This document shows, in pieces, positions 9,505 to 27,010 of a stretch of 32,000 nt of DNA. The stretch lies in NCBI RefSeq assembly GCF_000018785.1, contig NC_010163.1:30001-62000 (forward strand). The letters are read 5' to 3'. The notes beneath the pieces are model-generated. The model did not search any database and was not told where the DNA came from. It was given only the letters and a program-made list of their open reading frames with translations. Position numbers and translations under genes: made by a program. Source of the stretch: Acholeplasma laidlawii PG-8A. GTDB taxonomy: Bacteria; Bacillota_I; Bacilli_A; Acholeplasmatales; Acholeplasmataceae. Numbering within the stretch: position 1 is the stretch's first letter; the number at the start of each line of letters is the position of its first letter.

Positions 9505-10626
9505 ATGAAAATATTACTAAAAGTTGTTAAATGGACACTTATTACAGTTTTAAGTTTTATCTTAGTGCTTGCTGTACTTAATATCGTACCATTTAGTTTA
9601 TCTAAAGCTAAAAACGAAAACCACTTTAGAAAAACCACAGATTATCCTATGGTCATTCCTCATGGTGGAGCTAAACTATTAGCACCAGAAAACACCATAT
9701 GGGCATATGATATGTTAATTAATGAATTTCAAGCAGATGTCTTAGAAATAGACTTAGCACTAACAAAAGATAATATCTTAATTGCACATCACGATCTTGA
9801 TTTAGAGTTTTCTAGTGAGTCTGATATGAATGGTACACTGATAAGAACCCATAACTACCAAGATATCTTAGCTGAATATGAGAGTGATAATTACTATTTA
9901 GCTAGAAGATTTACGTACCCTAGTGATTATGCATATGATCCTGTTAAAGGTATCAAACCATTTGAAAATGAAACAGATGAAGCTATACTATCTAAATTAG
10001 TACCTGCTAAGTTATAAGATATCTTCACAAATGTTGGTGATGATGTATTATACATATTAGAAATAAAAGATTCACCAACATCTGAAGGTTATGATCATGA
10101 GATTCATGACTTTGTATTAGCTTCTCAAATACTAATTGATTTAGTTAACTTATATAATTTAGAATCACATGTAGTCCTAGCATCATTTTCAGATGATGTC
10201 ACAACTTACTTTAAAGACAATGCACCAGATATTTTAGTAAATGCTGGCACATCAGAAGTTACAATGTTTGCAGTATATAGTGCATTCTTTATCGATTTCT
10301 TTTGGACAGTTAAATCAGAGGTGTTAATCCTTCCGACACCATCATCTATGTCTATTACAGGATCAACAGCAAACCTTTTAGATATGCTACCTGGTTTTAT
10401 TAGAAATAATATTGCAATTAAGGGTGATGATGATATCTACCGTGCAAACCTTATGGGTAAAGAAATTATTAATGATGCACATAGAAAAAATATGGCTGTC
10501 TTATACTGGACAGTAAACTCTAAAGAAGAGATGAGACTCCTAATTAAAAACGGTGCAGATGGTATCATTACAGATAGACCTGATTTATTAATTGAGGTCA
10601 TTAATGAATTAGAAGCAGAAGCGTAA
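9505..10626 (+). pseudogene. Membrane-anchored glycerophosphodiester phosphodiesterase (GDPD family) interrupted by a single in-frame TAA at 10015-10017
   Basis: ORFs 9505-10017 and 10264-10626 share one frame, and my translation of 10018-10263 in that frame has no stop. N-terminal TM helix, PHGGAKLLAPENT, LEIDLALTKDNILIAHHD, and C-terminal DGIITDRPDLL. The stop sits in VPAKL*DIF, where GDPD proteins usually have a PTLEE-type motif. Confidence 0.8.
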
Positions 10627-10662
10627 AAATTTTAAAATAATTGCATATAATTTTTAAAATAG

Positions 10663-10696
10663 GCCATAATCATTTGATAGATTATGGCTTTTATTT
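10663..10696 (+). terminator. Rho-independent terminator after the GDPD gene
   Basis: GCCATAATC (10663-10671), 8-nt loop, GATTATGGC (10680-10688), then TTTTATTT. Confidence 0.75.
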
Positions 10697-10770
10697 ATAG
10701 TAAACCACCAAATTTAATCTAAAAATAAGAAATAAACCAGCAATTTAATAAGTAACACAACACGAAAATG

Positions 10771-10784
10771 CGAAAACGTTTACG
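10771..10784. promoter_or_regulatory. LacI-family-type operator candidate, distal copy (CGAAAACGTTTACG)
   Basis: CG-centred near-palindrome (12/14). It shares the core AAACGTTTACGT with the copy at 10904-10917. Confidence 0.5.
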
Positions 10785-10868
10785 TAAGAAAAATTACGTT
10801 AACGCCTTACTAAAGCGAATCACATAATTTTTGAAAATAAAACGCTTACATTCAGGTAAAAAAATTGC

Positions 10869-10903: not shown

Positions 10904-10917
10904 CGCAAACGTTTACG
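10904..10917. promoter_or_regulatory. LacI-family-type operator candidate, proximal copy (CGCAAACGTTTACG)
   Basis: CG-centred near-palindrome (12/14) starting 8 nt downstream of the -10 hexamer, around the expected transcription start and 20 nt upstream of the regulator ATG. Confidence 0.55.
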
Positions 10918-10936
10918 TCGATAGGGGATTGATAAT

Positions 10937-11956
10937 ATGGTGAAGTTAAAGGATATTGCTGATGTGGCTGGTGTAAGTATTGGTACAGTGAGTAAAGCCT
11001 TAAGCAATAGTCATGAAATCAGTATTAAAGTCACAAAGAAAATACATAAGATTGCCAGAGAAATGGGATATATCGCAAACTCTCAAGCTAGGAGTTTAAA
11101 AACAAATAGATCCTATAATATCGGTGTTGTATATATTGATAAATCTAAAGCAGGTTTAAAGCATGAGTATTTTTCAACTATGCTAAGTAGTATACAAGAA
11201 ACCTTACGTATCAAAGGATATGACTTTACCTTCATCTCTAATTTGGTTGGTACAACAAAGCATACCTTATTAAGTCATGCACGCTACCGAAGATGTGATG
11301 GTGTCATTATTGCTACTGCAGACTATGATGATCCTGAAATTCATCAACTTATGGCATCAGACATGAAGGTTGTTACAATTGATCATGATTTTCCAAATAG
11401 AACAGCTATCATGTCGGATAATAATATTGGTTTAGGAAAGATTGTGGATTATATATATAAATTAGGTCACACCAAAATTGCATTTATACATGGTGAAATG
11501 ACCCAAGTTACGAAAGATAGATTAGAATCTTTTAAAACAGCATGTCAAAGACTAAATATCGATATACCACAAGCATATATTAAACAAGCAGATTATCATT
11601 TACCAAAACAAAGTGGTATAGCAACCAGGGAATTACTTAGTTTAGATGAAAAACCAACATGTATCATATATCCTGATGATTACTCATTTATGGGCGGGAT
11701 GACTGAAATAGAAAAACATGGATTAAGCATACCGAATGATATTTCAGTTGTTGGATATGACGGGATTTATCTATCTAGAATACTTAGACCAACGCTAACA
11801 ACTTATGTTCAAAATAGCGAAGAGATTGGTAAACAAGCAGCATTAAAGCTTATCAATCATATAGAAAATCCCAAAGAGTTTATTTCTGAAAGAATAACAA
11901 TTACTGGAAAACTTCAAAAGGGTCATACAGTTAAAGATATTAAAAACACTTTTTAA
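10937..11956 (+). CDS. LacI/GalR-family transcriptional regulator
   Basis: N-terminal HTH VKLKDIADVAGVSIGTVSKALSN followed by a periplasmic-binding-protein-like sugar-binding fold. 339 aa. Confidence 0.92.
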   Translation: MVKLKDIADVAGVSIGTVSKALSNSHEISIKVTKKIHKIAREMGYIANSQARSLKTNRSYNIGVVYIDKSKAGLKHEYFSTMLSSIQETLRIKGYDFTFISNLVGTTKHTLLSHARYRRCDGVIIATADYDDPEIHQLMASDMKVVTIDHDFPNRTAIMSDNNIGLGKIVDYIYKLGHTKIAFIHGEMTQVTKDRLESFKTACQRLNIDIPQAYIKQADYHLPKQSGIATRELLSLDEKPTCIIYPDDYSFMGGMTEIEKHGLSIPNDISVVGYDGIYLSRILRPTLTTYVQNSEEIGKQAALKLINHIENPKEFISERITITGKLQKGHTVKDIKNTF

Positions 11957-11985
11957 AATTTAAAATATAGAAAAGGGGTACTAAA

Positions 11986-13377
11986 ATGTTTAAAAAGTTA
12001 TTTGTAGGGTTACTTGTATTACTTGCAGCTATTGGGTTAGTTGCTTGTGACAATGGATCAGGTGGTGTAGAGGCAAAAGAAGAAGGTTCTACACTAGTTA
12101 TTCGAGTTTGGAACGATGAGTTTATCGGTCGTTTCAGAAATTTCTATCCAGGCTTTGTTAAGACAAACTCTGATGGAACAGATCTCTTAGATGATGGAAC
12201 AATCGTCAAATGGATACAAGTTGCAAATGATAACAACGCGTATCAAATCGCATTAGATGCTGCACTGGCAAACCAAAATTCAGCAGCAGCTAATGATAAA
12301 GTGGATATCTTCTTAATTGAAGCGGATTACGCTACAAAATATGCAAACGATCGTTATGCATTAGATATTCATGGTGATTTAAAAATTAAAGAATCAGTTG
12401 TTGCAGATATGTATCAATATACTAAGGATATCGTTACAGATGATAAGGGTATATTAAGAGCAGTATCATGGCAAGCAACACCAGGCTTATTTGCTTATAG
12501 AGCAGATATTGCAAGAGAAGTACTAGGTACTGACGTACCAGCAGAAGTACAAGCTAAAATTGATACTTGGGCTAAATTTGACACAGTTGCAGCACAAATG
12601 AAAGCTAAGAGTTATAGTATGTTATCTGGTTATGATGATGCATTTAGAGCATATTCAAATAATACATCGGCTAAATGGGTCAATGATAAAAATGAAGTAG
12701 TCGTAGACCAACAAATCTTAAACTGGATTAAACAAACTAAAAACTATTCAACAAATGGATATAACAATGGTAATGGACTATGGAGTGATGGATGGCAAAG
12801 TGACCAAGGATCAACAGGCAATGTATTTGGATTCTTTTACTCAACATGGGGTATTAACTTTACGCTATTAGGTAACTCACTAGATGATGCTGATGCACCT
12901 AAAGAAGTAGGTAATGGATTATTTGGTGAGTACCGTGTTGTTCAAGGTCCTGCAAGTTACTATTGGGGTGGTACTTGGATAGTGGGTGCTAAAGGTACAG
13001 ACAATCCAACACTTGTTAAAGACATTATGATCAAGATGACTGCAAACCCAGCAATTGCAGAATCTATTACAAGAGAAGTTGAAGACTACACAAACAATAA
13101 AACAGCTATGACTAAAATAGCAAACGATGCAACATATGGTTCAGCATTCTTAGGTGGACAAAACCATATCGCTTTATTTACGTCAGCTGCCCAAAAAATC
13201 GATATGAGTAATGCATCACCTTATGACCAAGGGTTAAATGAAGGTATTCAAACTGCAATGAAAGACTACTTTGCAGGCACATCAACATTTGATCAAGCAT
13301 GGACAAGATTTAAAGAAATCGTTGGTGAAAAATATCCAGAATTAAAATTCCCAACAACACCGGCAGAACCAAAATAA
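11986..13377 (+). CDS. Sugar ABC transporter substrate-binding lipoprotein
   Basis: Signal peptide with lipobox LVAC followed by a Gly/Ser linker. 463 aa, with family-1 solute-binding-protein-like composition. AAGGGG SD. Confidence 0.8.
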   Translation: MFKKLFVGLLVLLAAIGLVACDNGSGGVEAKEEGSTLVIRVWNDEFIGRFRNFYPGFVKTNSDGTDLLDDGTIVKWIQVANDNNAYQIALDAALANQNSAAANDKVDIFLIEADYATKYANDRYALDIHGDLKIKESVVADMYQYTKDIVTDDKGILRAVSWQATPGLFAYRADIAREVLGTDVPAEVQAKIDTWAKFDTVAAQMKAKSYSMLSGYDDAFRAYSNNTSAKWVNDKNEVVVDQQILNWIKQTKNYSTNGYNNGNGLWSDGWQSDQGSTGNVFGFFYSTWGINFTLLGNSLDDADAPKEVGNGLFGEYRVVQGPASYYWGGTWIVGAKGTDNPTLVKDIMIKMTANPAIAESITREVEDYTNNKTAMTKIANDATYGSAFLGGQNHIALFTSAAQKIDMSNASPYDQGLNEGIQTAMKDYFAGTSTFDQAWTRFKEIVGEKYPELKFPTTPAEPK

Positions 13378-13393
13378 TTAATATACATTAAAT

Positions 13394-13430
13394 TTGATGA
13401 GGGAATTACCTTCCCTCATCAAGTCTTTTT
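13394..13430 (+). terminator. Intra-operon hairpin (partial terminator/attenuator) after the binding-protein gene
   Basis: TTGATGAGGGAA (13394-13405), loop TTACC, TTCCCTCATCAA (13411-13422), then GTCTTTTT. Confidence 0.6.
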
Positions 13431-13496
13431 GAATCAATAACTTTTAAAATTATGTAAACTTATTTTTAAATATAAGTACATGAAGGGGTATAATTT

Positions 13497-14456
13497 ATGT
13501 CTAAAAAGCGAAATAAAATTAATTACAACAAATGGGGATATTATTTTGTAGCACCTTTTATCATTGTATATTTGGTCTTTTCTCTGATCCCGCTATTATC
13601 AACGTTTTACTATAGTTTCTTTGAATATTACTATGCACAAGGTGGGTTTATAAAGATAGGACCAAATTTCATAGGCTTTGAAAATTATGTAACATTGTTT
13701 AGCCAAGGTGTCTTCATAAAATATCTGGGTAATACAATTGTTTTATGGTTGATGGGTTTTATACCCCAAGTTATTGTTTCATTACTGATGGCATTATGGT
13801 TTACATCCTTTAGACTTAAACTAAAAGGTACGGCATTTTTTAAAACAGTCATGTATCTTCCAAACCTAGTGATGGCAGCAGCCTTTTCCATGTTATTTGT
13901 TCAACTATTTTCAAATACAGGTGGGTTAACAACATTACTAATTGAATTAAACATTATCCCCGAAACATTTAGTTTCGTTGATAATGTTTGGCCAACAAGA
14001 GCGCTAATAGCACTGATGAACTTCTTGATGTGGTTTGGTAATACAACGATATTACTCATGGCAGGTATTATGGGTATTGATGATTCTTTAATTGAATCTG
14101 CCAGTGTAGATGGTGCAAATAGTAGACAAGTATTTACTAAGATTACACTACCACTTTTAAAACCTATATTATTATTTGTTTTAGTTACTTCTTTAGTTGG
14201 TGGTATTCAAATGTTTGATATACCATTTGTCTTTACAAGAGGGACTGGTGGTCCACAAGGATCATCACAGACTGTTATGATGTACATTAGTGGCTTACTA
14301 AGAACAAGTAAGCAATATGATATGGCAGGTACTGCTTCTGTTATATTATTTATTCTTACAACGATTATTAGCTTATTATTCTTCTTTATCATGAATAAAG
14401 ATGAAATTAAAGAATACCGTGAAGAGAAGAGAATAAGAAAGGAGATGAAAAGATGA
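13497..14456 (+). CDS. Sugar ABC transporter permease (MalF/UgpA-like)
   Basis: Six hydrophobic segments. EAA-loop motif IESASVDGANSRQVFTKITLPLLKP. Confidence 0.9.
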   Translation: MSKKRNKINYNKWGYYFVAPFIIVYLVFSLIPLLSTFYYSFFEYYYAQGGFIKIGPNFIGFENYVTLFSQGVFIKYLGNTIVLWLMGFIPQVIVSLLMALWFTSFRLKLKGTAFFKTVMYLPNLVMAAAFSMLFVQLFSNTGGLTTLLIELNIIPETFSFVDNVWPTRALIALMNFLMWFGNTTILLMAGIMGIDDSLIESASVDGANSRQVFTKITLPLLKPILLFVLVTSLVGGIQMFDIPFVFTRGTGGPQGSSQTVMMYISGLLRTSKQYDMAGTASVILFILTTIISLLFFFIMNKDEIKEYREEKRIRKEMKR

Positions 14457-15331
14457 ACAAATCATTTAATTTAAAAAAGATGCGTTTTGTTGATAAGCTC
14501 CCTTTATATTTTCTTAAATTCTTTATCTACTTTATTTTAGGTGTGTTTGCATTTGTAATTATCTTCTTATTCTATACATTGTTTGTAAATGCATCAAGAC
14601 CACACATTGATATTTCTAAGGGGTTTTCAATATTTCCGGGTTCATTTTTTATTAGAAACTTAAATAAAATCCTAACTCAAGAAAACCTATTTGTTATAGA
14701 AGGTATTAGAAATAGTTTCTTTATAGCCTTTGTATCTGGGATACTTACAACATACTTTAGTGCATTAACAGCTTATGCAATACATCTATATAAATTTAAA
14801 GGAAATAGATTTATCCATCTAGCGATATTAGCGGTTATGATGATTCCATCACAAATCGCCGGTATCGGGTTAGTAACGATATTATATAGTATAGGATTTG
14901 TAAATAATTACTGGGTAATCATCATACCCGCAATTGCATCACCAGCGACATTCTTTTTCATGAAACAATACATTCAAAGTGTATTACCTTATGAGATTAT
15001 TGAAGCTGCACGTGTTGATGGATCAAGTGAATTTAGAACGTTTAATCAAATTGTACTTCCAATTATTAAACCAGCTTTATCCGTTCAATTTATCTTTGCT
15101 TTTGTAGCAAGTTGGAACAACTTATTCATACCATCTTTAATTATTCAAGATGGTAATAAAAGAACGTTGCCAATTATAATTGCTCAACTGGGTGTATCTG
15201 ATCCGAAAAACTTTGATCAAGGTGCTCGATTTATGCTTATGTTTCTAGCAATTATTCCAACAGTGATCATATATCTGATTTTTTCTAAATATATTATAAA
15301 AGGTACTACAGCAGGTAGTGTGAAAGGTTAA
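14453..15331 (+). CDS. Sugar ABC transporter permease (MalG/UgpE-like)
   Basis: ATGA overlap with the preceding permease gene. EAA-loop motif IEAARVDGSSEFRTFNQIVLPIIKP. Confidence 0.9.
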   Translation: MNKSFNLKKMRFVDKLPLYFLKFFIYFILGVFAFVIIFLFYTLFVNASRPHIDISKGFSIFPGSFFIRNLNKILTQENLFVIEGIRNSFFIAFVSGILTTYFSALTAYAIHLYKFKGNRFIHLAILAVMMIPSQIAGIGLVTILYSIGFVNNYWVIIIPAIASPATFFFMKQYIQSVLPYEIIEAARVDGSSEFRTFNQIVLPIIKPALSVQFIFAFVASWNNLFIPSLIIQDGNKRTLPIIIAQLGVSDPKNFDQGARFMLMFLAIIPTVIIYLIFSKYIIKGTTAGSVKG

Positions 15332-15346
15332 TAAAGGACAATACTT

Positions 15347-17767
15347 ATGAAATATGGCTATTTTGATGATTTAAATAAAGAATACGTGATAACAACACCT
15401 TACACACCCTATCCTTGGATAAACTATCTAGGTAGTGATGACTATTTTGTTTTAATGTCAAATACTTCTGGTGGTTATAGTTTTTATAAAGATGCAAGAG
15501 ATAGAAGAATTACTAGATATCGCTACAATAATGTCCCTGTAGATAATGAAGGTAAATACTTCTTTATAAAAGATAAAGAAAGTATCTGGAATATTGGTGT
15601 TAAACCGACTAAAACACCATTAGACAGTTATGAAGTTAGACATGGTATGGGATACACCAAGTTTAATTCTAAAAAAGATGGACTTGTTGCTAAACAACTA
15701 TCGTTTGTACCAAAAAACTTTAATGGTGAAATCCATAAAATCACTTTAGAAAATACAACAAATGAAACAAAACATATAGAACTTATATCTTATGTTGAAT
15801 GGGCATTATGGAATGCCTTAGACGATCAAACAAATTTCCAGCGTAATTTATCGATTGGTGAAGTAGAAGTAGATGGGTCTACGATATATCACAAAACTGA
15901 ATATAGAGAACGTAGAAACCATTATGCATTTTTTCATGTGAATCACGATCTTAGTGGATTTGATACAGATAGAGAACAATTTTTAGGTCTATATAATGAT
16001 GTATCTAGTCCTGAAGTTGTAAGAGAAGGTAAACCTAAAAATAGTATAGCTGATGGATGGTCACCTATTGGTTCACACTTTATAAGCGTTGAACTCAAAG
16101 CACATGAACATAAAGACTTTATATTCATGATTGGTTATGTTGAAAGTGATAAATTTGATAAATTTGAAAGTCACAAAGTTATCAACAAAAAATTAGCAAA
16201 AGAAATGATCGATAAATATAAAAACGTAGACCAAGTAATGGCTTCATTTAGAGATTTAAACACATTCTGGCATAACACGCTTTCAAATTATCAAATCAAG
16301 TCTAATGATGATAAGTTAAACCGTATGGTCAATATTTGGAATCAATACCAAACCATGACAACCTTTAATTTAAGTCGTAGTGCATCCTATTTTGAATCTG
16401 GTGTAGGAAGGGGTATGGGTTTTAGAGACTCTAACCAAGACTTACTAGGATTTATGCATATGGATAGTGTTAAGACACGTCAAAGATTAATAGATTTAGC
16501 ATCAACACTACTCTATGATGGTGGTGCATACCATCAGTATTCACCACTTACTAAAAAGGGAAATGCTGATTTAGGTTCAGGTTTTAATGATGATCCAAAT
16601 TGGTTTATATTAGCATGTGTACAGTACATTAAAGAGTCTGGTGATTTTACAATCCTTGATGAAGTCATCATGTATGAATCAAATCCAAATTTAAAAGGAA
16701 GCATGTTAGAACACTTAGAAAAAGCATTTTATAAAACGGCACTTAATCTTGGGCCGCATGGTCTACCATTAATTGGTAGAGCTGATTGGAATGACTGTCT
16801 TAATTTAAACTGTTTTTCAGACGAACCAGGAGAGTCTTTCCAAACAGTTCAAAATAAGGGTGATGGTAAAACTGCAGAAAGTATCTTTATAGCGGGACTC
16901 TTTGTATATGTAGGTAAAAAATACAGTGAACTGCTAGATAGAATAAATGATCATCATAACAAACAAAAAGTAGATGCACTCGTACAAAAAATGACACATC
17001 AAGTTGAAAAACATGGTTTCGATGGTAATTGGTTTTTAAGAGCATATGATGCTTATGGTCATAAAGTGGGTTCACACACAAACGATGAAGGAAAGATATT
17101 CATCGAGCCTCAAGGTATATGTGTCATGGCAGGTATTGGTCTTCAAAACGGTATGGCCAAAAAAGCTTTAGATCATGCTAAAACCATGTTAGATACACCA
17201 TATGGTATGGTTCTAAACTATCCAGCCTATTCCACATACCGTTTAGAATTGGGTGAGATTTCAAGTTATCCTGAAGGCTATAAAGAAAATGGTGGAATTT
17301 TCTGCCACAATAATCCTTGGATTGCATGTGCAGAGGCAGTAGTTGGCAATGGTAATCGTGCATTTGAAGTGTATAAAAAAATCGCACCTGCATATATTGA
17401 GGATATCTCTGATATCCACAAGACAGAACCGTATGTCTACTCACAAATGATTGCAGGTAAAGAAGCTAAAAGACATGGTGAGGCTAAAAACTCATGGCTC
17501 ACTGGAACCTCTGCTTGGAACTTTGTAGCAATTAGTCAATATATTTTAGGTATTCAACCAGAATTTGATGGTTTAAGTATCAAACCTGTATTACCTGATC
17601 ATCTAAATGAACTAGAAATTACTAGAAAGTTTAGACAAAACACATATATTATTAAAGTTATAAGAACTGGTAAGCAAATGATTGAATATAAGGGTAGAAT
17701 CTATAAAGATCACATGATACCTTACGTGGTTTCAAACCAAATAGAACATATTACAGTACACATATAA
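15347..17767 (+). CDS. GH94 beta-disaccharide phosphorylase (cellobiose/chitobiose/laminaribiose phosphorylase family)
   Basis: 806 aa. N-terminus MKYGYFDDLNKEYVITTPYTPYPWINYLG is characteristic of GH94 phosphorylases. Catalytic region GRADWNDCLNL. Substrate cannot be assigned by eye. Confidence 0.9.
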   Translation: MKYGYFDDLNKEYVITTPYTPYPWINYLGSDDYFVLMSNTSGGYSFYKDARDRRITRYRYNNVPVDNEGKYFFIKDKESIWNIGVKPTKTPLDSYEVRHGMGYTKFNSKKDGLVAKQLSFVPKNFNGEIHKITLENTTNETKHIELISYVEWALWNALDDQTNFQRNLSIGEVEVDGSTIYHKTEYRERRNHYAFFHVNHDLSGFDTDREQFLGLYNDVSSPEVVREGKPKNSIADGWSPIGSHFISVELKAHEHKDFIFMIGYVESDKFDKFESHKVINKKLAKEMIDKYKNVDQVMASFRDLNTFWHNTLSNYQIKSNDDKLNRMVNIWNQYQTMTTFNLSRSASYFESGVGRGMGFRDSNQDLLGFMHMDSVKTRQRLIDLASTLLYDGGAYHQYSPLTKKGNADLGSGFNDDPNWFILACVQYIKESGDFTILDEVIMYESNPNLKGSMLEHLEKAFYKTALNLGPHGLPLIGRADWNDCLNLNCFSDEPGESFQTVQNKGDGKTAESIFIAGLFVYVGKKYSELLDRINDHHNKQKVDALVQKMTHQVEKHGFDGNWFLRAYDAYGHKVGSHTNDEGKIFIEPQGICVMAGIGLQNGMAKKALDHAKTMLDTPYGMVLNYPAYSTYRLELGEISSYPEGYKENGGIFCHNNPWIACAEAVVGNGNRAFEVYKKIAPAYIEDISDIHKTEPYVYSQMIAGKEAKRHGEAKNSWLTGTSAWNFVAISQYILGIQPEFDGLSIKPVLPDHLNELEITRKFRQNTYIIKVIRTGKQMIEYKGRIYKDHMIPYVVSNQIEHITVHI

Positions 17768-18424: not shown

Positions 18425-18453
18425 TTGATAACGTTATATCGTTAAGATATAAT
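18425..18453 (+). promoter_or_regulatory. Consensus sigma-70 promoter for the first amidase lipoprotein gene
   Basis: TTGATA (18425-18430), exactly 17-nt spacer, TATAAT (18448-18453). Confidence 0.7.
18426..18439. promoter_or_regulatory. cre/LacI-type operator overlapping the -35 and spacer (TGATAACGTTATAT)
   Basis: Contains the perfect 10-bp CG-centred palindrome ATAACGTTAT. It matches the cre consensus TGWAANCGNTNWCA except at the last two positions. Confidence 0.5.
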
Positions 18454-18460
18454 CAATATG

Positions 18461-18474
18461 TGAAAGCGTTATCA
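18461..18474. promoter_or_regulatory. cre/LacI-type operator just downstream of the predicted transcription start (TGAAAGCGTTATCA)
   Basis: Matches the cre consensus TGWAANCGNTNWCA at every position. It lies between the -10 hexamer and the AGGAGG SD (18480-18485). Confidence 0.6.
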
Positions 18475-18491
18475 ATATTAGGAGGAATTCA

Positions 18492-21095
18492 ATGACAAAA
18501 CTATTTTCTTACCCTATGAAAAAATTAGTTGTCTTAACAGTGCTTATAGCTACATTATTTACACTTATAGCTTGTATAAATGAAAATGAACATACGAATG
18601 ATACAGATGTTACTATTACATTTGAAACAAATGATACAGTGACTAAAGGATCAGTAATAATCAAATCGGGAACCTTATTAAGTGAAACAGATCTATCTAT
18701 TCATGATAGAGAGCATTTCACTTTTAATGGTTGGTATATAGATGAGGCATTAACTCAACCTTTTGACCCATTAGAAGAAATAAAAGAATCTATAAAATTA
18801 TACGCTAAATGGACAGAAGATGAAGTGCCTACTTATCGTTATGAACTTCTATTCAACGGTGGTAACTACTGGTATGAAAACAGAGAACAAATGGTAGATG
18901 ATTTTATAAGTGATTATAATACATTTAGTGATAATACATATACCCTTGAAACTTTACCGATGGATAAAGACAGTTTATTAGATATTGCTGAATTTATGTA
19001 TGAAGAAACCTATAGAACAAAGTGGTTATGGTTAACAAGATATTTAAGATTAGTCGGATCAGATACTAATAAATCCTCTATGAGTGCATTATTAGCTCAA
19101 TCTAGTTTAGATAAGTTCTTGGCACAAAACGAGAAAAATAGAAAAGCTGTATCTTATGAAATTAGAGCGTTTATCAAAGGGGCACAGTTTACAGATGATG
19201 CAACATTAAGTTCATCAGATTATACAGACACAGAACTTAAAACAGGATTTTGGCCATTCATAGTCGGATCTCAACAAGCCATATTTGAAGATGCAAAACA
19301 CGAGGTGATATTACCAACCACCTTATACAAAGAAGGCTTTGTGTTCTATGGTTGGTATTTAACTGAAAACTTTTATGGTGAACCAGTAACTAAAATTAAT
19401 GGTTCAGCAACTTTATTTGCAAGATTTGATGGTGAAAATCCAATTGATTCCGTCATTATTGAAAACGAAGTAGAATATATGGAAAAAGGCACAGAGTTAG
19501 CACTGGATATAACAATTCTTCCACTAGATGCAACCTATACTGATTTAAGATTTGAAATTAGAGAGCAATCTGTAGCATCGATAAGTGCTGATGGTGTTAT
19601 TACAGCACTTAATGAAGGAGAATTTACATTATATATCATGGCTGAAAATGGTAGATTATTAAAGGTTCTTGACATGACAGTTTATCCAAAAGATGATATT
19701 AACTTAACCTTTAATGAAGGTTTTAACGGTTACTTAAAAGTGGATGAACAATTTGAAATTGAAGTTACTGGTGTAGGTAGAGATGCATCAAGTAACCACT
19801 ATACATTTAGTGTTGTTGATGACAGTGTGATTCAAATGTCTGAATCGGGTGTATTTAATGCACTTAAAGTAGGTTCTACAGAAATTAATATCTTAAACTT
19901 AGATACAGTTGTAATGACATATACTGCAATTGTTCAAGATGACTTATCTACATCGAGAGTTGATCAGTTACTTGAGTTATTAAGAGATGGACATAATGCT
20001 GTAGCTACACCATTTACTTTAGTAACCAGATATGAAACAACCAATGAATGGCGTGATCCTAGACATGAAAGTGTCAACACCTATTTATTTGATGATTTAG
20101 TGATTGATAAAGATAGTTATCCAATGCCAGACGGCTTAAAAAACAGTGGTGCTAGACCTTCAACAGAATTTATCTTATTACATGATACAGCAAATCTTCA
20201 TATTGGATTAATGGCACACGGTGCATTTTTCCAAAGTGCTGCAAATGCAGTATCTATTCACTATATTACAGGGGACTATGGTGTACTACAAAGTCTAGCT
20301 GAAGATAGAATTGGATGGCATGCTGGTGATGGTACTGGTACAAGTTTTCAGTGGTATAAGACGGGTGTCATGGCAACCAATAATGAAAAACCATTTATTG
20401 ATATTTCAGAAGATGGATTCTTCACCTTTAACGGTGAAAAATCAGTAGTTGAAGCACCAAGAGGTTTAAATGGTGAAATTCTTACTAGAGATTACTTTAC
20501 ATATCTAGGACCAACTTGGGATATATTTGATGGTGAGTATGTCATCGGTAGAACATACCTTGCAACTAACCAACAAAAACGTGGCGTGATTGCATCCTTT
20601 GGTGGAAATAGAAACTCAGTGGGTATTGAAATGAGTATTAATGTCGATGGCGATATTGTCGATACAGTACAAAGAACAGCAAAACTTGTTGCATACCTAT
20701 TAGAAAAATATGACTTACCAAATCATAGAGTTATTTCACATAATACAACAGATGGTAAGGGAGATCCTTACACATTACACAATACAGTCTATAAAGGCAC
20801 TTGGTACTTTGATAGATTTATGGAACACGTCGAAATCGAGCGTGAGATCTTAGTGAATTATAGCGATGCTAAAATTACACTCACATCAGATTCAGATTTA
20901 GTATCAAGCACAGGTAGAATTACAAGATTCCCTGATGTAACAACTGAAGTTAAATATACAATAACAGTTGAAATTGATGGTGTTTCAAAATCAATCGATC
21001 TAGTAAGTGTTGTTCCAGGTATGAGTACATGGAATCAATACCATGGCTTCTTTACACCAACACAAGCATGGGCTAAAGCAGACTATAGAAATTAA
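18492..21095 (+). CDS. Large surface lipoprotein (867 aa): Listeria-Bacteroides repeats, two Ig-like (Big_2-type) domains, split Amidase_2 (N-acetylmuramoyl-L-alanine amidase) domain, C-terminal Ig-like tail
   Basis: - Lipobox LIAC (Cys28).
- Flg_new-type repeat FTFNGWYIDE ... LYAKW.
- Big_2-like IDSVIIENEVEYMEKGTEL ... ALNEGEFTLYIMA.
- Amidase_2 motifs: EFILLHDTA (His564, nt 20181-20183), SIHYITGDYGVLQS ... IGWHAGDG, NSVGIEMS, VISHNTTDGKGDP (His750, Lys756, Asp758).
- AGGAGG SD. Confidence 0.8.
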   Translation: MTKLFSYPMKKLVVLTVLIATLFTLIACINENEHTNDTDVTITFETNDTVTKGSVIIKSGTLLSETDLSIHDREHFTFNGWYIDEALTQPFDPLEEIKESIKLYAKWTEDEVPTYRYELLFNGGNYWYENREQMVDDFISDYNTFSDNTYTLETLPMDKDSLLDIAEFMYEETYRTKWLWLTRYLRLVGSDTNKSSMSALLAQSSLDKFLAQNEKNRKAVSYEIRAFIKGAQFTDDATLSSSDYTDTELKTGFWPFIVGSQQAIFEDAKHEVILPTTLYKEGFVFYGWYLTENFYGEPVTKINGSATLFARFDGENPIDSVIIENEVEYMEKGTELALDITILPLDATYTDLRFEIREQSVASISADGVITALNEGEFTLYIMAENGRLLKVLDMTVYPKDDINLTFNEGFNGYLKVDEQFEIEVTGVGRDASSNHYTFSVVDDSVIQMSESGVFNALKVGSTEINILNLDTVVMTYTAIVQDDLSTSRVDQLLELLRDGHNAVATPFTLVTRYETTNEWRDPRHESVNTYLFDDLVIDKDSYPMPDGLKNSGARPSTEFILLHDTANLHIGLMAHGAFFQSAANAVSIHYITGDYGVLQSLAEDRIGWHAGDGTGTSFQWYKTGVMATNNEKPFIDISEDGFFTFNGEKSVVEAPRGLNGEILTRDYFTYLGPTWDIFDGEYVIGRTYLATNQQKRGVIASFGGNRNSVGIEMSINVDGDIVDTVQRTAKLVAYLLEKYDLPNHRVISHNTTDGKGDPYTLHNTVYKGTWYFDRFMEHVEIEREILVNYSDAKITLTSDSDLVSSTGRITRFPDVTTEVKYTITVEIDGVSKSIDLVSVVPGMSTWNQYHGFFTPTQAWAKADYRN

Positions 21096-21107
21096 TAATG
21101 CAAAAAG

Positions 21108-21148
21108 ATAAGAGAACTTTATAAAAACAAAACATAAAGTTCTCTTAT
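21108..21148 (+). terminator. Perfect 15-bp hairpin between the two paralogous lipoprotein genes (terminator or processing/attenuation element; no T-tract)
   Basis: ATAAGAGAACTTTAT (21108-21122), 11-nt loop, ATAAAGTTCTCTTAT (21134-21148). It is followed by GTATAT rather than a U-run. Confidence 0.45.
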
Positions 21149-21199
21149 GTATATAAAGGGATAAAAAAATATGAGAAAAATAAGGGGAATAAGAGAACT

Positions 21200-24100
21200 A
21201 TGAATATCATCAAATATCCAAAAATAGTAACGAGTATTTTGATGGTTTTAAGTATGTTTATACTCGTATCATGTACAAATAATCAAGAGAATATAATTTT
21301 AAGTTTATCCACATATGAAGAAGCGTTAGAAGTTGGACAAACACTTCAAATAAACCATGAACTTAAAACAGGTGATAAAATCATTAATGACACCATAAAC
21401 TGGGAAAGCACGAATGAAGGTGTAGCAACCATTCAAACAGGTTTAGTGCGTGCTATAAGTGAAGGTACTACAACAATTAAAGCTACCTACAAAACGCTAA
21501 GTCAAAGTGTTGTAATTACAGTTACAAAAAAATCTGAAACTTCCTATACCGTGTCGTTTAATACAGATGGTGGAACCGTTATAGAACCGGTAAATGTTTT
21601 AGAAGATTCGATTATAACTAGACCAGCGAATCCTACTAAAGAAGGACACTCATTTAGTAACTGGTATATAGATGAAGAGTTTTTAGAAGCGTTTGACTTT
21701 AATGATGTCATCACAAGTGATTTAGTGTTATATGCTAAGTTTATACCTAATCAATATAGAATAACTTTCACTACAAATCATACGACTTTAAAAGAGGATA
21801 TTTTAATCCATCACGGGAATACTTTAAATGAAGAACAACTCACTCTAGAAGCTAATGACAAGGCAGTGTCTGGTTGGTATTTAGATAGTGAATTAAAGAA
21901 CGCTTTTAATTTAGAAACTGTTATCACAAATGATTTAACACTTTATGCTAAGTGGGATGTAAAAAAAATAAGTATATCCTTTATAACAAATGATGAAACT
22001 ATCACGAAACCCGCTATTCAAATGAACTATGGTACTCAAATGAGTGCTGCTCAATTAAATATCGGCAGTAAGCCGTTTCACGACTTTGATGGCTGGTATT
22101 TAGATAGTGATTATAGCGAGGCTTTTGTAAGAACGATACCCTTAACTACATCACTTACTTTATATGCTAAGTGGGTAGAACATGAAAAGACTTATTATAC
22201 TGTAAACCACTTAATTAAAACATCATCTACAACAAGTGAAGTACATCAAACTTACCAAGTACAAGATGTCTATGTCGGCCAAGTTGTTCGAATTGATGCA
22301 CTCAATATACCAGATATGTATGCTGATAATTTAGTAGTAGAGGCGACCATAGAAAAAGATGGTCAAACCATAATTAATCTATATTATGGTCCAAAGGGTT
22401 ATACATATGAACTCGACTTCAACGGTGGTAATACAAGATATAGTAATAGAGAAGCTATGGTTGAAGATTGGATTAAAGACTATAATAGTTTCGCTGGAAA
22501 AACATATACATTAGAAACCCTACCAATGGGTTCTTGGGAACTTGGTAATATCCATAGTTTTATGTATAGTCCAGTATACCGAAATAAATGGTTATGGATT
22601 GCAGACTATTTAAAAGTGGTTGGATCAGCAACCAATAAAGGACCTGTAGGATTACTTATTACAACACCTACGCTTCAACAATTTGATGCCGTTAGTGATA
22701 ACAATAAATACGCGGTAAGTTATGAAGTTAGAGGCTTCATTAAAGGTGAAAAGTTTACTGCAAATGCAAGTTGGCAGTCTTCTGATTATGGAATTAATGA
22801 TTTAAAGCACGGCTTTTGGCCATATCTAGAAAAGGCAGAACAAAAGATTATAACGAATGGACAATTTGATGTAACACTGCCTACAAATGTGTATTATCCG
22901 TATCATGAATTTATTGGTTGGTATGATAATGAAGCACTTGAAGGAGAGTCTATCACGGTGATTAATGGACCAACCAAGGTATATGCTAAATTTGAAGAAA
23001 TTAATCCGGTTACGCTATTAGAAATAGATAACCCGATTGAAGAGATGGAAAAATTAACACAGTATCAATTAAATGTCACGATCTTACCTGAGGATGCCTA
23101 CAATAAAACATTGGTATATAGTTCCTCAGATGTGCGTATTGCAACAATTAGTTCAAGTGGTTTAATAGAAGCACACAATGAAGGTGAAGTTGTCATAAAA
23201 GTAACTTCTCAAAATGGTAAGGTCTCATTAGAATTTAATTTAAAGATATATCCCAAAGATGATATCATGCTTCAATTTGATGAAACATTTAATGGTTACA
23301 TTACAGTTGGAGATAGTTTTAATATGGAAGCTATTGGTGTTGGCCGTATGGCTACAAGTGAGCACTATAACTATGACATACTTGATACAAACGTACTTAC
23401 AATGTCTGAACCTGGGTTATTTCATGCGGTGTCAGAAGGTACAACTCAAATTGATATATATAACTTAGATACGCTTCAATATAGTTATAAAGTCATCATT
23501 CATCCTAAGTTTTCAACTTCTAGAATTGATCAATTACTAGAAATACTTGCAAACGGACATAATCCTGTTGCAACAGGTGTAAACTTCATTCCATACTACA
23601 CAGCAAGTGAAGAATGGTCTGATCCAAGACATGAAAGTGTAAATAGCTATTTATTTGATGATTTTGTAGTAGATAGAACGGGCTATAGAGTACCAGATGG
23701 CTTAAAGGATAGTGGAACACGTCCTTCTACGGAATTTATTCTCATGCATGATACAGCAAACTTAAATGGTGGGCTCGTTGCACACGGAAACTTCTTTATG
23801 AAGACTGATAACAACGTATCCATTCACTATATTACAGGTGACTACGGAATTATTCAAAGTTTAAGTGATGATAGAATAGGTTGGCATGGAGGGGATCGTA
23901 ACTTACCATTTGAGTGGTTAAAAACCGGTGTGATGGCAACATCAAATGAAGCGCCTTACATTGATATAGCTCCAAACGGGTTTTACACATTTAATGGTAT
24001 ACAAACACTTATCATGGCACCAAAACATACCAATGGTAGCATGTTAGATCGTTCATACTTCACATATCTTGGACCAACTTGGGATATATTTGAGGGTGAA

Positions 24101-24661
24101 TATGTCATGGGAACAACCTACTTTACTACAAGTCAACAAAGTAGAGGGGTGATTGCTACTAGAGGCGGAAATAGACACTCAGTGGGTATTGAAATGTCTG
24201 TCAACAAAGATGGTGATATTATGGATACAGTGCAAAGAACTGCTAAACTTGTTGCTAACTTACTAGAACAATATGACCTAGACAATAGCCGCGTGATTCT
24301 TCATAATACAACAGATGGTAAGGGCGATCCTTATACATTTAACAATACGATTTATAAAGGTAGTTGGTATTTCGATCGTTTTATGGAGTTCGTTTCGATT
24401 GAACGTACGATATTAAAAGACTTTTCTGATGCTAAAATTACCTTAACATCAAACTCACCTTTAGTATCAAAAACAGGACGCATTCTTCACCTACCTGATA
24501 TGACAACAGAAGTAACTTATACAATCACTGTTGAACTAGATGGTGAAACAAAATCTATAGAACTTGTAACAGTAGTTCCAGGTATAAATACTTGGAGTCA
24601 AAACTATGGTTTCTTTAAACCGTTCCAAGCTTATTCAAAATCAGATTATAGACAATCCTAA
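21200..24661 (+). CDS. Large surface lipoprotein (1153 aa), paralog of 18492-21095 with an extra N-terminal Big_2 domain and three extra Listeria-Bacteroides repeats
   Basis: - Lipobox LVSC (Cys25).
- Big_2-like INWESTNEGVATIQTGLVRAISEGTTTIKA.
- Three repeats ending LYAKF or LYAKW.
- From aa 403 (nt 22406) onward it is collinear with aa 116-867 of the upstream protein.
- Amidase_2 motifs: EFILMHDTA (His850, nt 23747-23749), SIHYITGDYGIIQS ... IGWHGGD, HSVGIEMS, VILHNTTDGKGDP. Confidence 0.8.
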   Translation: MNIIKYPKIVTSILMVLSMFILVSCTNNQENIILSLSTYEEALEVGQTLQINHELKTGDKIINDTINWESTNEGVATIQTGLVRAISEGTTTIKATYKTLSQSVVITVTKKSETSYTVSFNTDGGTVIEPVNVLEDSIITRPANPTKEGHSFSNWYIDEEFLEAFDFNDVITSDLVLYAKFIPNQYRITFTTNHTTLKEDILIHHGNTLNEEQLTLEANDKAVSGWYLDSELKNAFNLETVITNDLTLYAKWDVKKISISFITNDETITKPAIQMNYGTQMSAAQLNIGSKPFHDFDGWYLDSDYSEAFVRTIPLTTSLTLYAKWVEHEKTYYTVNHLIKTSSTTSEVHQTYQVQDVYVGQVVRIDALNIPDMYADNLVVEATIEKDGQTIINLYYGPKGYTYELDFNGGNTRYSNREAMVEDWIKDYNSFAGKTYTLETLPMGSWELGNIHSFMYSPVYRNKWLWIADYLKVVGSATNKGPVGLLITTPTLQQFDAVSDNNKYAVSYEVRGFIKGEKFTANASWQSSDYGINDLKHGFWPYLEKAEQKIITNGQFDVTLPTNVYYPYHEFIGWYDNEALEGESITVINGPTKVYAKFEEINPVTLLEIDNPIEEMEKLTQYQLNVTILPEDAYNKTLVYSSSDVRIATISSSGLIEAHNEGEVVIKVTSQNGKVSLEFNLKIYPKDDIMLQFDETFNGYITVGDSFNMEAIGVGRMATSEHYNYDILDTNVLTMSEPGLFHAVSEGTTQIDIYNLDTLQYSYKVIIHPKFSTSRIDQLLEILANGHNPVATGVNFIPYYTASEEWSDPRHESVNSYLFDDFVVDRTGYRVPDGLKDSGTRPSTEFILMHDTANLNGGLVAHGNFFMKTDNNVSIHYITGDYGIIQSLSDDRIGWHGGDRNLPFEWLKTGVMATSNEAPYIDIAPNGFYTFNGIQTLIMAPKHTNGSMLDRSYFTYLGPTWDIFEGEYVMGTTYFTTSQQSRGVIATRGGNRHSVGIEMSVNKDGDIMDTVQRTAKLVANLLEQYDLDNSRVILHNTTDGKGDPYTFNNTIYKGSWYFDRFMEFVSIERTILKDFSDAKITLTSNSPLVSKTGRILHLPDMTTEVTYTITVELDGETKSIELVTVVPGINTWSQNYGFFKPFQAYSKSDYRQS

Positions 24662-24673
24662 CGAAACTACATG

Positions 24674-24709
24674 ACACCCCAAGTTTGAGATTAAACTTGG
24701 GGTGTTTTA
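24674..24709 (+). terminator. Rho-independent terminator after the second lipoprotein gene
   Basis: ACACCCCAAGTTT (24674-24686), loop GAGATT, AAACTTGGGGTGT (24693-24705), then TTT. Confidence 0.85.
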
Positions 24710-24727
24710 CTTAATTAAAAATATATA

Positions 24728-26967: not shown

Positions 26968-26996
26968 AATTTATAGATAAAATACGACAAAAATGT

Positions 26997-27010
26997 TGTA
27001 AGCGTTATCA
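26997..27010. promoter_or_regulatory. cre/LacI-type box TGTAAGCGTTATCA in the long gap upstream of glyA
   Basis: Matches TGWAANCGNTNWCA at all positions. It shares GCGTTATCA with the box at 18461-18474. It lies about 160 nt upstream of the glyA ATG. Confidence 0.45.

Follow-up and report, generated by a model that had tools for sequence, protein, structure and literature searches.

Tandem lipoprotein amidases in wall-less Acholeplasma laidlawii and their possible action on foreign peptidoglycan

Two paralogous lipoproteins at one locus

Mollicutes, Acholeplasma laidlawii and other Acholeplasma included, are described in the literature as bacteria without a cell wall. We analysed a 32-kb window of A. 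laidlawii PG-8A (the whole stretch of DNA under study; coordinates are positions in it unless another locus is named), in which two adjacent genes on the plus strand, here called gene 1 and gene 2, encode large proteins with an amidase domain. An earlier note, made from the DNA letters and a list of open reading frames (ORFs), had described them as lipoproteins of 867 and 1153 amino acids (aa) from what looked like an Acholeplasma-type host. Both ORFs were present exactly where it had placed them, and the host assignment was correct: the two proteins are exact sequence matches to the PG-8A entries ABX80683.1 and ABX80684.1. The window has a G+C content of ~32%, and TGA serves as a stop codon in 4 of the 20 ORFs checked, in keeping with genetic code 11.

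The basic amidase annotation is already public in GenBank, and the kind of enzyme is known. Gene 1 is named 'N-acetylmuramoyl-L-alanine amidase', and gene 2 carries the same name or, at NCBI, 'InlB B-repeat-containing protein'. Their locus tags are probably ACL_RS00215 and ACL_RS00220, respectively, as obtained by stepping the tags in fives from ACL_RS00185. The operator CGCAAACGTTTACG, published for the regulator ACL_RS00185 (PMC5138195 supplementary Table 4), occurs at position 10904, just 5' of the window's LacI gene. The two genes and the layout of gene 1 are as follows:

18492-21095, plus strand: gene 1, lipoprotein N-acetylmuramoyl-L-alanine amidase of 867 aa (ORF and translation; ABX80683.1)
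21200-24661, plus strand: gene 2, paralogous lipoprotein amidase of 1153 aa (ORF and translation; ABX80684.1)
18492-18575, plus strand: gene 1 signal peptide with basic n-region, hydrophobic h-region and lipobox L-I-A-C (Cys28)
18612-18809, plus strand: gene 1 Flg_new (InlB B-repeat) domain, aa 41-106 (PF09479, 53.2 bits)
18834-19436, plus strand: gene 1 variant Flg_new unit with a helical-bundle insertion, aa 115-315 (AlphaFold2 (AF2) model), the start of the 750-aa core common to gene 2
19437-19937, plus strand: gene 1 immunoglobulin-like (Ig-like) region, aa 316-482, read as two Big_2-type domains (PF02368; collinear with gene 2)
19938-21092, plus strand: gene 1 catalytic module, aa 483-867, with N-terminal extension, Amidase_2 core and C-terminal Ig-like β domain (AF2 and Foldseek)

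The N-terminus of gene 2 is built like that of gene 1, with a basic n-region, a hydrophobic h-region and the lipobox LVSC (Cys25). These are the lipoprotein signal peptides that had been read by eye, and both were confirmed by sequence; the pattern [LVI][ASTVI][GAS]C fits the two genes, and lipoboxes were also found in most full-length members of the family described below. On this basis, both proteins are predicted to be lipid-anchored and exposed on the cell surface.

BLASTP aligned aa 115-866 of gene 1 with aa 401-1151 of gene 2, with 429 of 752 residues identical (57%) and one gap of a single residue. The collinear stretches correspond to nucleotides (nt) ~18834-21089 and 22400-24652, which differ by only 3-9 nt from those claimed before, and the earlier estimates of collinearity over about 750 aa and of a little over half of the residues in common thus hold. 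When aligned by codon, the DNA of the two genes is 64% identical, with a longest identical run of 23 nt, indicating that the duplication is old, as had been proposed, and without sign of recent gene conversion.

The 750-aa core consists of four parts, namely a helix-interrupted Flg_new-like unit, the Ig-like region, a linker with a helix, and the catalytic module. In gene 2, the core (aa 401-1153) is preceded by the lipobox, an extra Big_2 domain and three Flg_new repeats. The Amidase_2, Flg_new and Big_2 domains named in the earlier note were recovered by a Pfam profile search, in which both proteins scored above the gathering cut-offs: 54.5 and 47.4 bits in genes 1 and 2, respectively, for Amidase_2 (PF01510; cut-off 26), 53.2 and 134 bits for Flg_new (PF09479; cut-off 27), and 28 and 85 bits for Big_2 (PF02368; cut-off 22.8). 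PF02368 matched a single stretch of gene 1 (aa 319-386) and two of gene 2. The Amidase_2 match of gene 2 spreads over 200 residues for a profile of 131 positions because of an insertion in the catalytic core.

The helical bundle in the variant Flg_new unit comprises roughly 130-150 aa, and the AF2 model gave predicted local distance difference test (pLDDT) values of 85-95 over the helices. No match to the bundle was found in Pfam or the PDB; only the strand parts of the unit match InlB in the PDB. The helix-bearing unit recurs at least four times in proteins of the P0010 type (~1480 aa), which have no Amidase_2 match. A second enzyme at this position was considered but found no support, given the lack of Pfam and PDB matches and the recurrence of the unit as a repeat in amidase-less proteins. 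By this recurrence, the unit is read as a probable structural or binding module.

A catalytic module with an inserted subdomain

The features of the catalytic module were located by structure modelling and by alignment to the endolysins PlyG and PlyL. The reference was PlyG chain 2l47, for which the alignment numbering matches PlyL, and the corresponding XlyA residues were also aligned.

20343-20600, plus strand: 86-aa β-rich insertion, aa 618-703, inside the Amidase_2 core, between WHAGDGTGT and GGNRNSVGIEMS
20181-20765, plus strand: gene 1 catalytic-residue span (alignment to PlyG/PlyL)
20181-20183, plus strand: His564, aligned with PlyG/PlyL His29
20628-20630, plus strand: Glu713, aligned with PlyG/PlyL Glu90
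20739-20741, plus strand: His750, aligned with PlyG/PlyL His129
20757-20759, plus strand: Lys756, aligned with PlyG/PlyL Lys135
20763-20765, plus strand: Asp758, aligned with PlyG/PlyL Cys137
Gene 2 (aa numbering), plus strand: catalytic residues His850, Glu998, His1035, Lys1041 and Asp1043 (alignment)

The AF2 model of the last 388 aa of gene 1, built on an alignment of 81 sequences, was compact (pLDDT 92.7, predicted template-modelling score 0.93). The amidase domain of XlyA was the nearest solved sequence (E 2e-11, phmmer), with a clean alignment in two blocks. Foldseek matched the XlyA structures 3hmb and 3rdr at E 1e-10, with target-normalised template-modelling (TM) scores of 0.88-0.89 and root-mean-square deviations of 2.2-2.3 Å; over XlyA and PlyL together, the module core gave scores of 0.87-0.89 and deviations of 2.2-2.4 Å. 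PlyG, AmiA/AmiE, AmpD and LytA followed below these. The module is accordingly predicted by the model to have the α/β amidase fold.

The alignment with XlyA breaks exactly at the insertion: XlyA is contiguous at residue 87, and residues 139-224 of the query are unmatched. The insertion is retained in the 81 aligned relatives. Neither the insertion nor the N-terminal extension, which consists of a helix and β-hairpins, had a counterpart in the PDB, and the C-terminal β domain of the module gave only short Ig-like matches there. These three features set the module apart.

Glu713, His750 and Lys756 were present in 81 of 81 aligned sequences and His564 in all 79 non-gap rows, and the four residues are invariant in all 18 close family sequences. 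Position 758 is Cys in 71 of the 81 sequences and Asp in the other 10, the Asp forms being those of the Acholeplasma clade. PDB entry 2ar3 is an E90A mutant of PlyL, altered at the residue that aligns with Glu713. The catalytic set appears intact, with His564, His750 and Asp758 as the predicted zinc ligands.

The active-site motifs named in the earlier note stood for the most part: LHDTAN, GIEMS and (S/L)HNTTDGKGDP occur in both proteins and align to the active site. The Tyr of the motif HYI proved to be shifted. Tyr591 aligns with the Phe of 'WHF' in XlyA, and two positions earlier there is Ile589 here and Trp in XlyA and most relatives. This is the position that we take to be equivalent to Tyr46 of T7 lysozyme (in 'GYHF'), an active-site Tyr also found in catalytic peptidoglycan-recognition proteins. 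T7 lysozyme itself was not among the matches of the sequence search. Among the XlyA/PlyL enzymes, which are active, this Tyr is not conserved, so its shift would not count against activity. The aligned residues and the modelled fold suggest that both genes encode active amidases.

The known systems resemble these proteins in part. XlyA from the PBSX prophage of Bacillus subtilis and the PlyL and PlyG endolysins are the best matches in sequence and fold, with the aligned His, Glu, His and Lys set. Endolysins of this type gain access to the wall from the cytoplasmic side and are equipped with wall-binding domains. Their solved catalytic chains have ~155-165 aa, whereas the Acholeplasma-type proteins are chromosomal lipoproteins of 867-2626 aa, with the 86-aa insertion, the N-terminal extension and the C-terminal Ig-like domain in addition; the third ligand is Cys in the endolysins but Asp in the Acholeplasma clade, whose host has no wall to lyse. 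AmpD and AmiD share the fold (AmpD entries 2y2b, 2y2c and 2y28 were among the matches) and, if the reading proposed below holds, a role in processing peptidoglycan fragments rather than the own sacculus, and the third zinc ligand of AmpD is Asp. AmpD is, however, a small cytoplasmic recycling enzyme of walled bacteria with much weaker sequence similarity to genes 1 and 2 than XlyA has, while the proteins described here carry lipoprotein signal peptides and large, presumably extracellular stalks. Staphylococcal Atl AmiA/AmiE and pneumococcal LytA likewise combine an Amidase_2-type fold at the surface with repeat modules (fold matches at E 1e-5 to 1e-4), but their repeats bind wall or choline and they remodel the own wall, in contrast to a predicted lipid anchor, Flg_new and Big_2 repeats and a wall-less producer. 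Surface proteins of Bacillota with InlB B-repeats (Flg_new, TIGR02543) or Big_2 domains are built from the same modules as the N-terminal halves of genes 1 and 2; the difference is that one core repeat carries the helical-bundle insertion here and that the proteins end in an enzyme.

Family, selection and genomic context

The family with the 750-aa core is narrow, with nine clusters at 90% identity among 5.8 billion proteins. A scan of 185,579 species genomes in GTDB returned 16 loci and two weaker partial matches; it used two peptide patterns only, and absence of the family elsewhere is not proven by it. The hosts are A. laidlawii, Acholeplasma sp., metagenome-assembled genomes (MAGs) of Acholeplasmataceae and Acholeplasmatales, one MAG labelled 'Haloplasmataceae' and MAGs labelled 'Bacilli' or 'Bacillota'. 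A. laidlawii was the only named species matched in this two-pattern scan, in which no other cultured Acholeplasma species matched; the remainder were environmental MAGs, some with bioreactor-type isolate names. A third A. laidlawii paralog of 2025 aa is encoded in strain 8195 (locus L005, 4197-10274; ~564.7-570.8 kb), 3' of glgA and glgC, and combines five Big_2 domains with a C-terminal 750-aa core at 51% identity. Other relatives reach 2187-2626 aa, and tandem pairs or triples occur at loci L013, L104 and L105.

The catalytic module with its insertion is spread more broadly, with 106 clusters in one search and 207 representatives at 50% identity at E <= 1e-30 among 1.84 billion entries. The carriers are mostly proteins of 600-3300 aa with the module at the C-terminus; forms of ~360 aa without an N-terminal hydrophobic stretch were also found. 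Nearly all come from uncultured organisms with labels such as 'Bacilli bacterium' or 'Clostridia bacterium', or with contradictory ones (one protein being assigned to both Prevotella sp. and Staphylococcus sp.). A restriction of the module subfamily to wall-less lineages was considered but could not be supported: the source labels are uninformative, and the contig of one carrier, L103, encodes the gpr germination protease (Peptidase_A25), which argues otherwise. Some environmental 'Tenericutes' have been reported to retain mraY and murG.

At the locus itself, strain 8195 and three other Acholeplasma species have a single gene-1 orthologue between OsmC and ppa and lack gene 2 there (window 21096-24661; 10560-10800 at locus L001). 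In strain 8195, the orthologue is directly followed by the hairpin terminator that stands after gene 2 in PG-8A. In a neighbour-joining tree, gene 2 fell outside the entire clade of gene-1 orthologues, indicating an old paralog that is variably present, and the third paralog grouped with the giant proteins. One A. laidlawii strain has gene 1 as two adjacent pieces, P0029 (334 aa, TRX99427.1) and P0005 (485 aa, TRX99428.1), of which one contains the InlB repeat and the other is automatically named 'peptidoglycan recognition protein family protein' by NCBI. This suggests that gene 1 is disrupted in that strain.

The ratio of nonsynonymous to synonymous substitution rates (dN/dS) between PG-8A and strain 8195 was about 0-0.11 across regions and 0.02-0.05 over the amidase halves and the insertion. 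Between gene 1 and its orthologue in the nearest other species it was 0.08-0.16 across regions, with dS partly saturated. For the amidase halves and the insertion, the overall range was 0.02-0.15, the two closest comparisons having their lowest values in the catalytic parts, and the C-terminal half of the amidase core, at 93-94% identity between species, was the best-conserved region. The earlier view that both copies are maintained is supported in that both are under purifying selection; it does not extend to all relatives, given the absence of gene 2 from strain 8195 and three species and the split gene 1.

The control elements of the two genes were read from the sequence:

18425-18453, plus strand: promoter-like site of gene 1 (TTGATA, 17-nt spacer, TATAAT; 11 of 12 consensus matches)
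18426-18439, no strand assigned: putative LacI-type operator, palindrome TGATAACGTTATAT, overlapping the -35 hexamer
18461-18474, no strand assigned: cre-like operator TGAAAGCGTTATCA, 31 nt 5' of the gene 1 start codon and just 3' of the -10 hexamer; fits TGWNANCGNTNWCA
18480-18485, plus strand: AGGAGG ribosome-binding site of gene 1 (read from sequence)
21110-21146, plus strand: AT-rich 13-bp hairpin in the spacer between the genes (AAGAGAACTTTAT, 11-nt loop, ATAAAGTTCTCTT), with no T-run after it
24674-24712, plus strand: strong intrinsic terminator with a GC-rich stem of 13 bp and TTTTACTT after it, closing the gene 1-gene 2 unit

The promoter-like site had the best score between 17700 and 25000 by consensus match, and its hexamers are flanked by the two LacI-type palindromes TGATAACGTTATAT and TGAAAGCGTTATCA. 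The core of the former, TAACGTTA, occurs only twice in the window. The pattern TGWNANCGNTNWCA likewise has only two matches in the 32 kb, the other lying at 26996-27010, 5' of the serine hydroxymethyltransferase gene (27170). The cre-type element of the earlier note does match the consensus, and two related loci retain it, the site at the same -31 position being identical in strain 8195 and different by one base in Acholeplasma sp. L004. The site departs from the stricter 15-nt pattern WTGNAANCGNWNNCW and from TTGTAAGNNCTTACAA, the motif predicted for the CcpA homologue of A. laidlawii by Fisunov et al. 2016. The spacer hairpin was not called by the terminator scan; it might terminate transcription weakly or serve as a processing site. 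A direct repeat, ATAAGAGAACT, is also present in the spacer at 21108-21118 and again at 21189-21199, where it runs up to the start codon of gene 2.

In the window, genes 1 and 2 are flanked by the housekeeping genes OsmC, ppa, yebC and glyA. An origin as prophage endolysins was rejected in view of these flanks, and since viral contigs and viral structure models match the generic amidase core only: the Amidase_2 matches in the IMG/VR contigs scanned were short, generic and too short to contain the 86-aa insertion, and the BFVD viral structure models matched only the core, with query-normalised TM scores <=0.40.

The earlier note had also linked the amidases to a neighbouring oligosaccharide-uptake operon. 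This operon (LacI, solute-binding protein, two permeases and a GH94 phosphorylase; 10904-17767) has an operator of its own at 10904, lies beyond the OsmC gene, which stands on the opposite strand between it and gene 1, and is absent at the orthologous loci L003 and L004 (Acholeplasma MAGs), where a glycerophosphodiester phosphodiesterase (GDPD) gene abuts OsmC. The link of gene 1 and gene 2 to the LacI-ABC-GH94 operon as a conserved association was dropped for these reasons, and relative to L003 and L004 the operon appears from sequence comparison to be an insertion. The GDPD gene of PG-8A (9505-10626) contains a single in-frame TAA at codon 171 (10015-10017). Apart from this stop, it is collinear with its intact L003 orthologue, at 79% identity over 372 aa, and it is either a pseudogene or the product of a sequencing error.

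Elsewhere, family members have other neighbours. The third paralog is flanked by glgA, glgC and a helicase gene, the giant relatives by macro-domain, tyrS and pepF genes, and a member of 1278 aa (L015, 12819-18446) adjoins genes of lysine fermentation (β-keto acid cleavage enzyme, lysine 2,3-aminomutase and D-lysine 5,6-aminomutase). At locus L013 (569-10247), three tandem family genes of 307, 918 and 1126 aa lie directly 3' of a gene for a 590-aa MurQ/GKRP-like SIS-domain protein. With 99.8 bits, this gene stays below the MurQ cut-off of NCBIfam (168 bits), and it belongs to a widespread, highly conserved 590-aa family, with no A. laidlawii entry among the 120 matches listed. We treat the adjacency as uninformative; it may be due to chance. 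In three independent metagenomic contigs (L019, 9372-11089; L103, 9381-11077; L105, 7337-11956), shorter relatives of ~360 or 630-650 aa lie next to and divergent from comEA-comEC, before recD2, and a link of these to competence is possible.

Foreign peptidoglycan as the likely substrate

We propose, with a probability of about 0.55, that genes 1 and 2 encode lipid-anchored, outward-facing zinc muramoyl-L-alanine amidases that act on foreign peptidoglycan. The Flg_new and Ig-like stalk would hold the C-terminal catalytic module, an XlyA/PlyL-type Amidase_2 core with the 86-aa β-subdomain, the N-terminal extension and the C-terminal Ig-like domain, off the membrane. Zinc would be bound by His564, His750 and Asp758, the chemistry would be carried out by Glu713 and Lys756, and the bond cut would be the lactyl-L-Ala amide of peptidoglycan. 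Because the cell has no wall, the substrate would have to be foreign, in the form of sacculi, wall fragments or muropeptides of dead or neighbouring bacteria. The freed stem peptides would be taken up and the opened sacculi would expose cell contents, feeding a nutritionally dependent wall-less cell, and expression of gene 1 would probably be linked to carbon status via the LacI/CcpA-type operators at its promoter.

Two independent lines of context fit foreign peptidoglycan as the substrate. In an RNA stable-isotope probing study, Acholeplasma were the first to assimilate 13C-labelled dead E. coli biomass (PMC4628116). Among the regulons that emerged from promoter mapping in A. laidlawii are some with the annotations 'catabolism of cell wall components' and 'metabolism of murein' (PMC5138195). 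The analysis establishes the host, the sequence family and fold, the conserved catalytic residues, the lipoboxes and the purifying selection; surface exposure, enzymatic activity, foreign peptidoglycan as substrate, and scavenging instead of antagonism as purpose are inferred.

Several observations weigh against this proposal. The 86-aa insertion lies in a loop adjoining the substrate groove and could alter or block the usual specificity, and the Cys ligand has been replaced by Asp in the Acholeplasma clade. The germination protease on L103 indicates that some module hosts are probably walled spore-formers, and in our view the module probably began as an ordinary Bacillota wall enzyme that Acholeplasma later kept and expanded. 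Among the neighbours in the loci examined, no gene for peptidoglycan catabolism or peptide uptake was conserved, and the cre-like site misses the predicted A. laidlawii CcpA motif. Strain 8195 does without gene 2, and one strain has a split gene 1. Neither protein was found in one proteome data set of A. laidlawii vesicles and cells, which had no amidase entry. The earlier statement that no characterised member of this architecture is known still stands: no solved structure was found in the PDB, and neither a characterised member nor a paper on genes 1 and 2 was found in the searchable literature.

The same chemistry could serve another purpose, namely antagonism, in which the surface amidases, possibly also on released vesicles, would lyse living Gram-positive neighbours on contact and so kill competitors or set free their DNA and cytoplasm. 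An intact catalytic apparatus and a long, adhesin-like stalk would suit this role, the shorter relatives divergent from comEA/comEC in three independent contigs recall competence-linked lysins, and the uptake of nucleic-acid precursors from dead cells by Acholeplasma, suggested by the authors of the probing study (PMC4628116), would agree with it. We nevertheless consider it unlikely, as lone external amidases are usually poor killers of intact cells and the outer membrane shields Gram-negatives, a cre-like carbon-status operator suits nutrition better than warfare, no immunity or toxin-type neighbours were seen, and genes 1 and 2 do not lie beside com genes. The proteins might instead be mainly adhesins that bind peptidoglycan in the manner of recognition proteins and anchor the cell to bacteria or debris, with catalysis slow or secondary. 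The automatic NCBI name of the gene 1 fragment, the multi-domain architecture of Ig-like domains and InlB repeats, typical of adhesins, and an inserted subdomain that could widen the binding surface all agree with such a role. Non-catalytic peptidoglycan recognition proteins, however, typically lose a zinc ligand or catalytic residues, whereas here all aligned relatives keep His, Glu, His and Lys unchanged and have either Cys or Asp as the third ligand, which makes a primarily adhesive function improbable.

The insertion and the Cys-to-Asp exchange raise the question of whether the enzyme has been retargeted to a substrate other than peptidoglycan, such as own surface polymers or a glycopeptide of the host or environment. 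The producer has no murein, the 86 aa are inserted in a loop that lines the groove, the ligand swap is restricted to the Acholeplasma clade, and no conserved neighbour is peptidoglycan-catabolic. The insertion is also found in Cys-type relatives, probable walled hosts included, and so is older than the loss of the wall; AmpD-type peptidoglycan amidases regularly have Asp as a zinc ligand, and we know of no member of the amidase fold with a non-muramoyl substrate. Such a change of substrate is therefore hard to credit. Least probable of all is that the genes are evolutionary relics, former autolysins of a walled ancestor that are decaying or are kept for a structural role at the surface. The absence of gene 2 in some strains and species, the split gene 1 and the probable origin of the family in walled Bacillota point in this direction, but a dN/dS of 0.02-0.15 over the amidase halves and the insertion, together with invariant catalytic residues, reflects strong purifying selection, which argues against a decaying relic, and there are three diverged paralogs and an old duplication.

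Returning to amidases that act on foreign peptidoglycan, a broader and more tentative idea is that they serve an unrecognised feeding strategy of free-living wall-less Acholeplasmatales. Stalked amidases would dismantle the sacculi of others, and the cells would live on the released peptides and contents. This might explain why they are the first consumers of necromass, and the insertion might be a new recognition element for insoluble, cross-linked murein; we regard this extension as possible, though doubtful. What is new here is a distinct, uncharacterised subfamily architecture that is kept as three diverged copies in an organism without murein. The proposal is testable, as A. laidlawii can be cultured, genetic tools exist for strain 8195, and there are natural variants without gene 2 or with a split gene 1. 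If true, it would define an Amidase_2 subfamily of ~207 clusters at 50% identity, whose inserted subdomain could serve as a scaffold for enzybiotics.

For the biology of the organism, a wall-less bacterium that keeps three diverged, predicted wall-cutting enzymes at its surface under strong purifying selection would imply a life off the walls of other bacteria. If this is true, it would provide a molecular basis for the rapid uptake of dead biomass by free-living Acholeplasma, and a wall-less organism would join the known peptidoglycan degraders in the turnover of necromass in sludge, manure and digesters.

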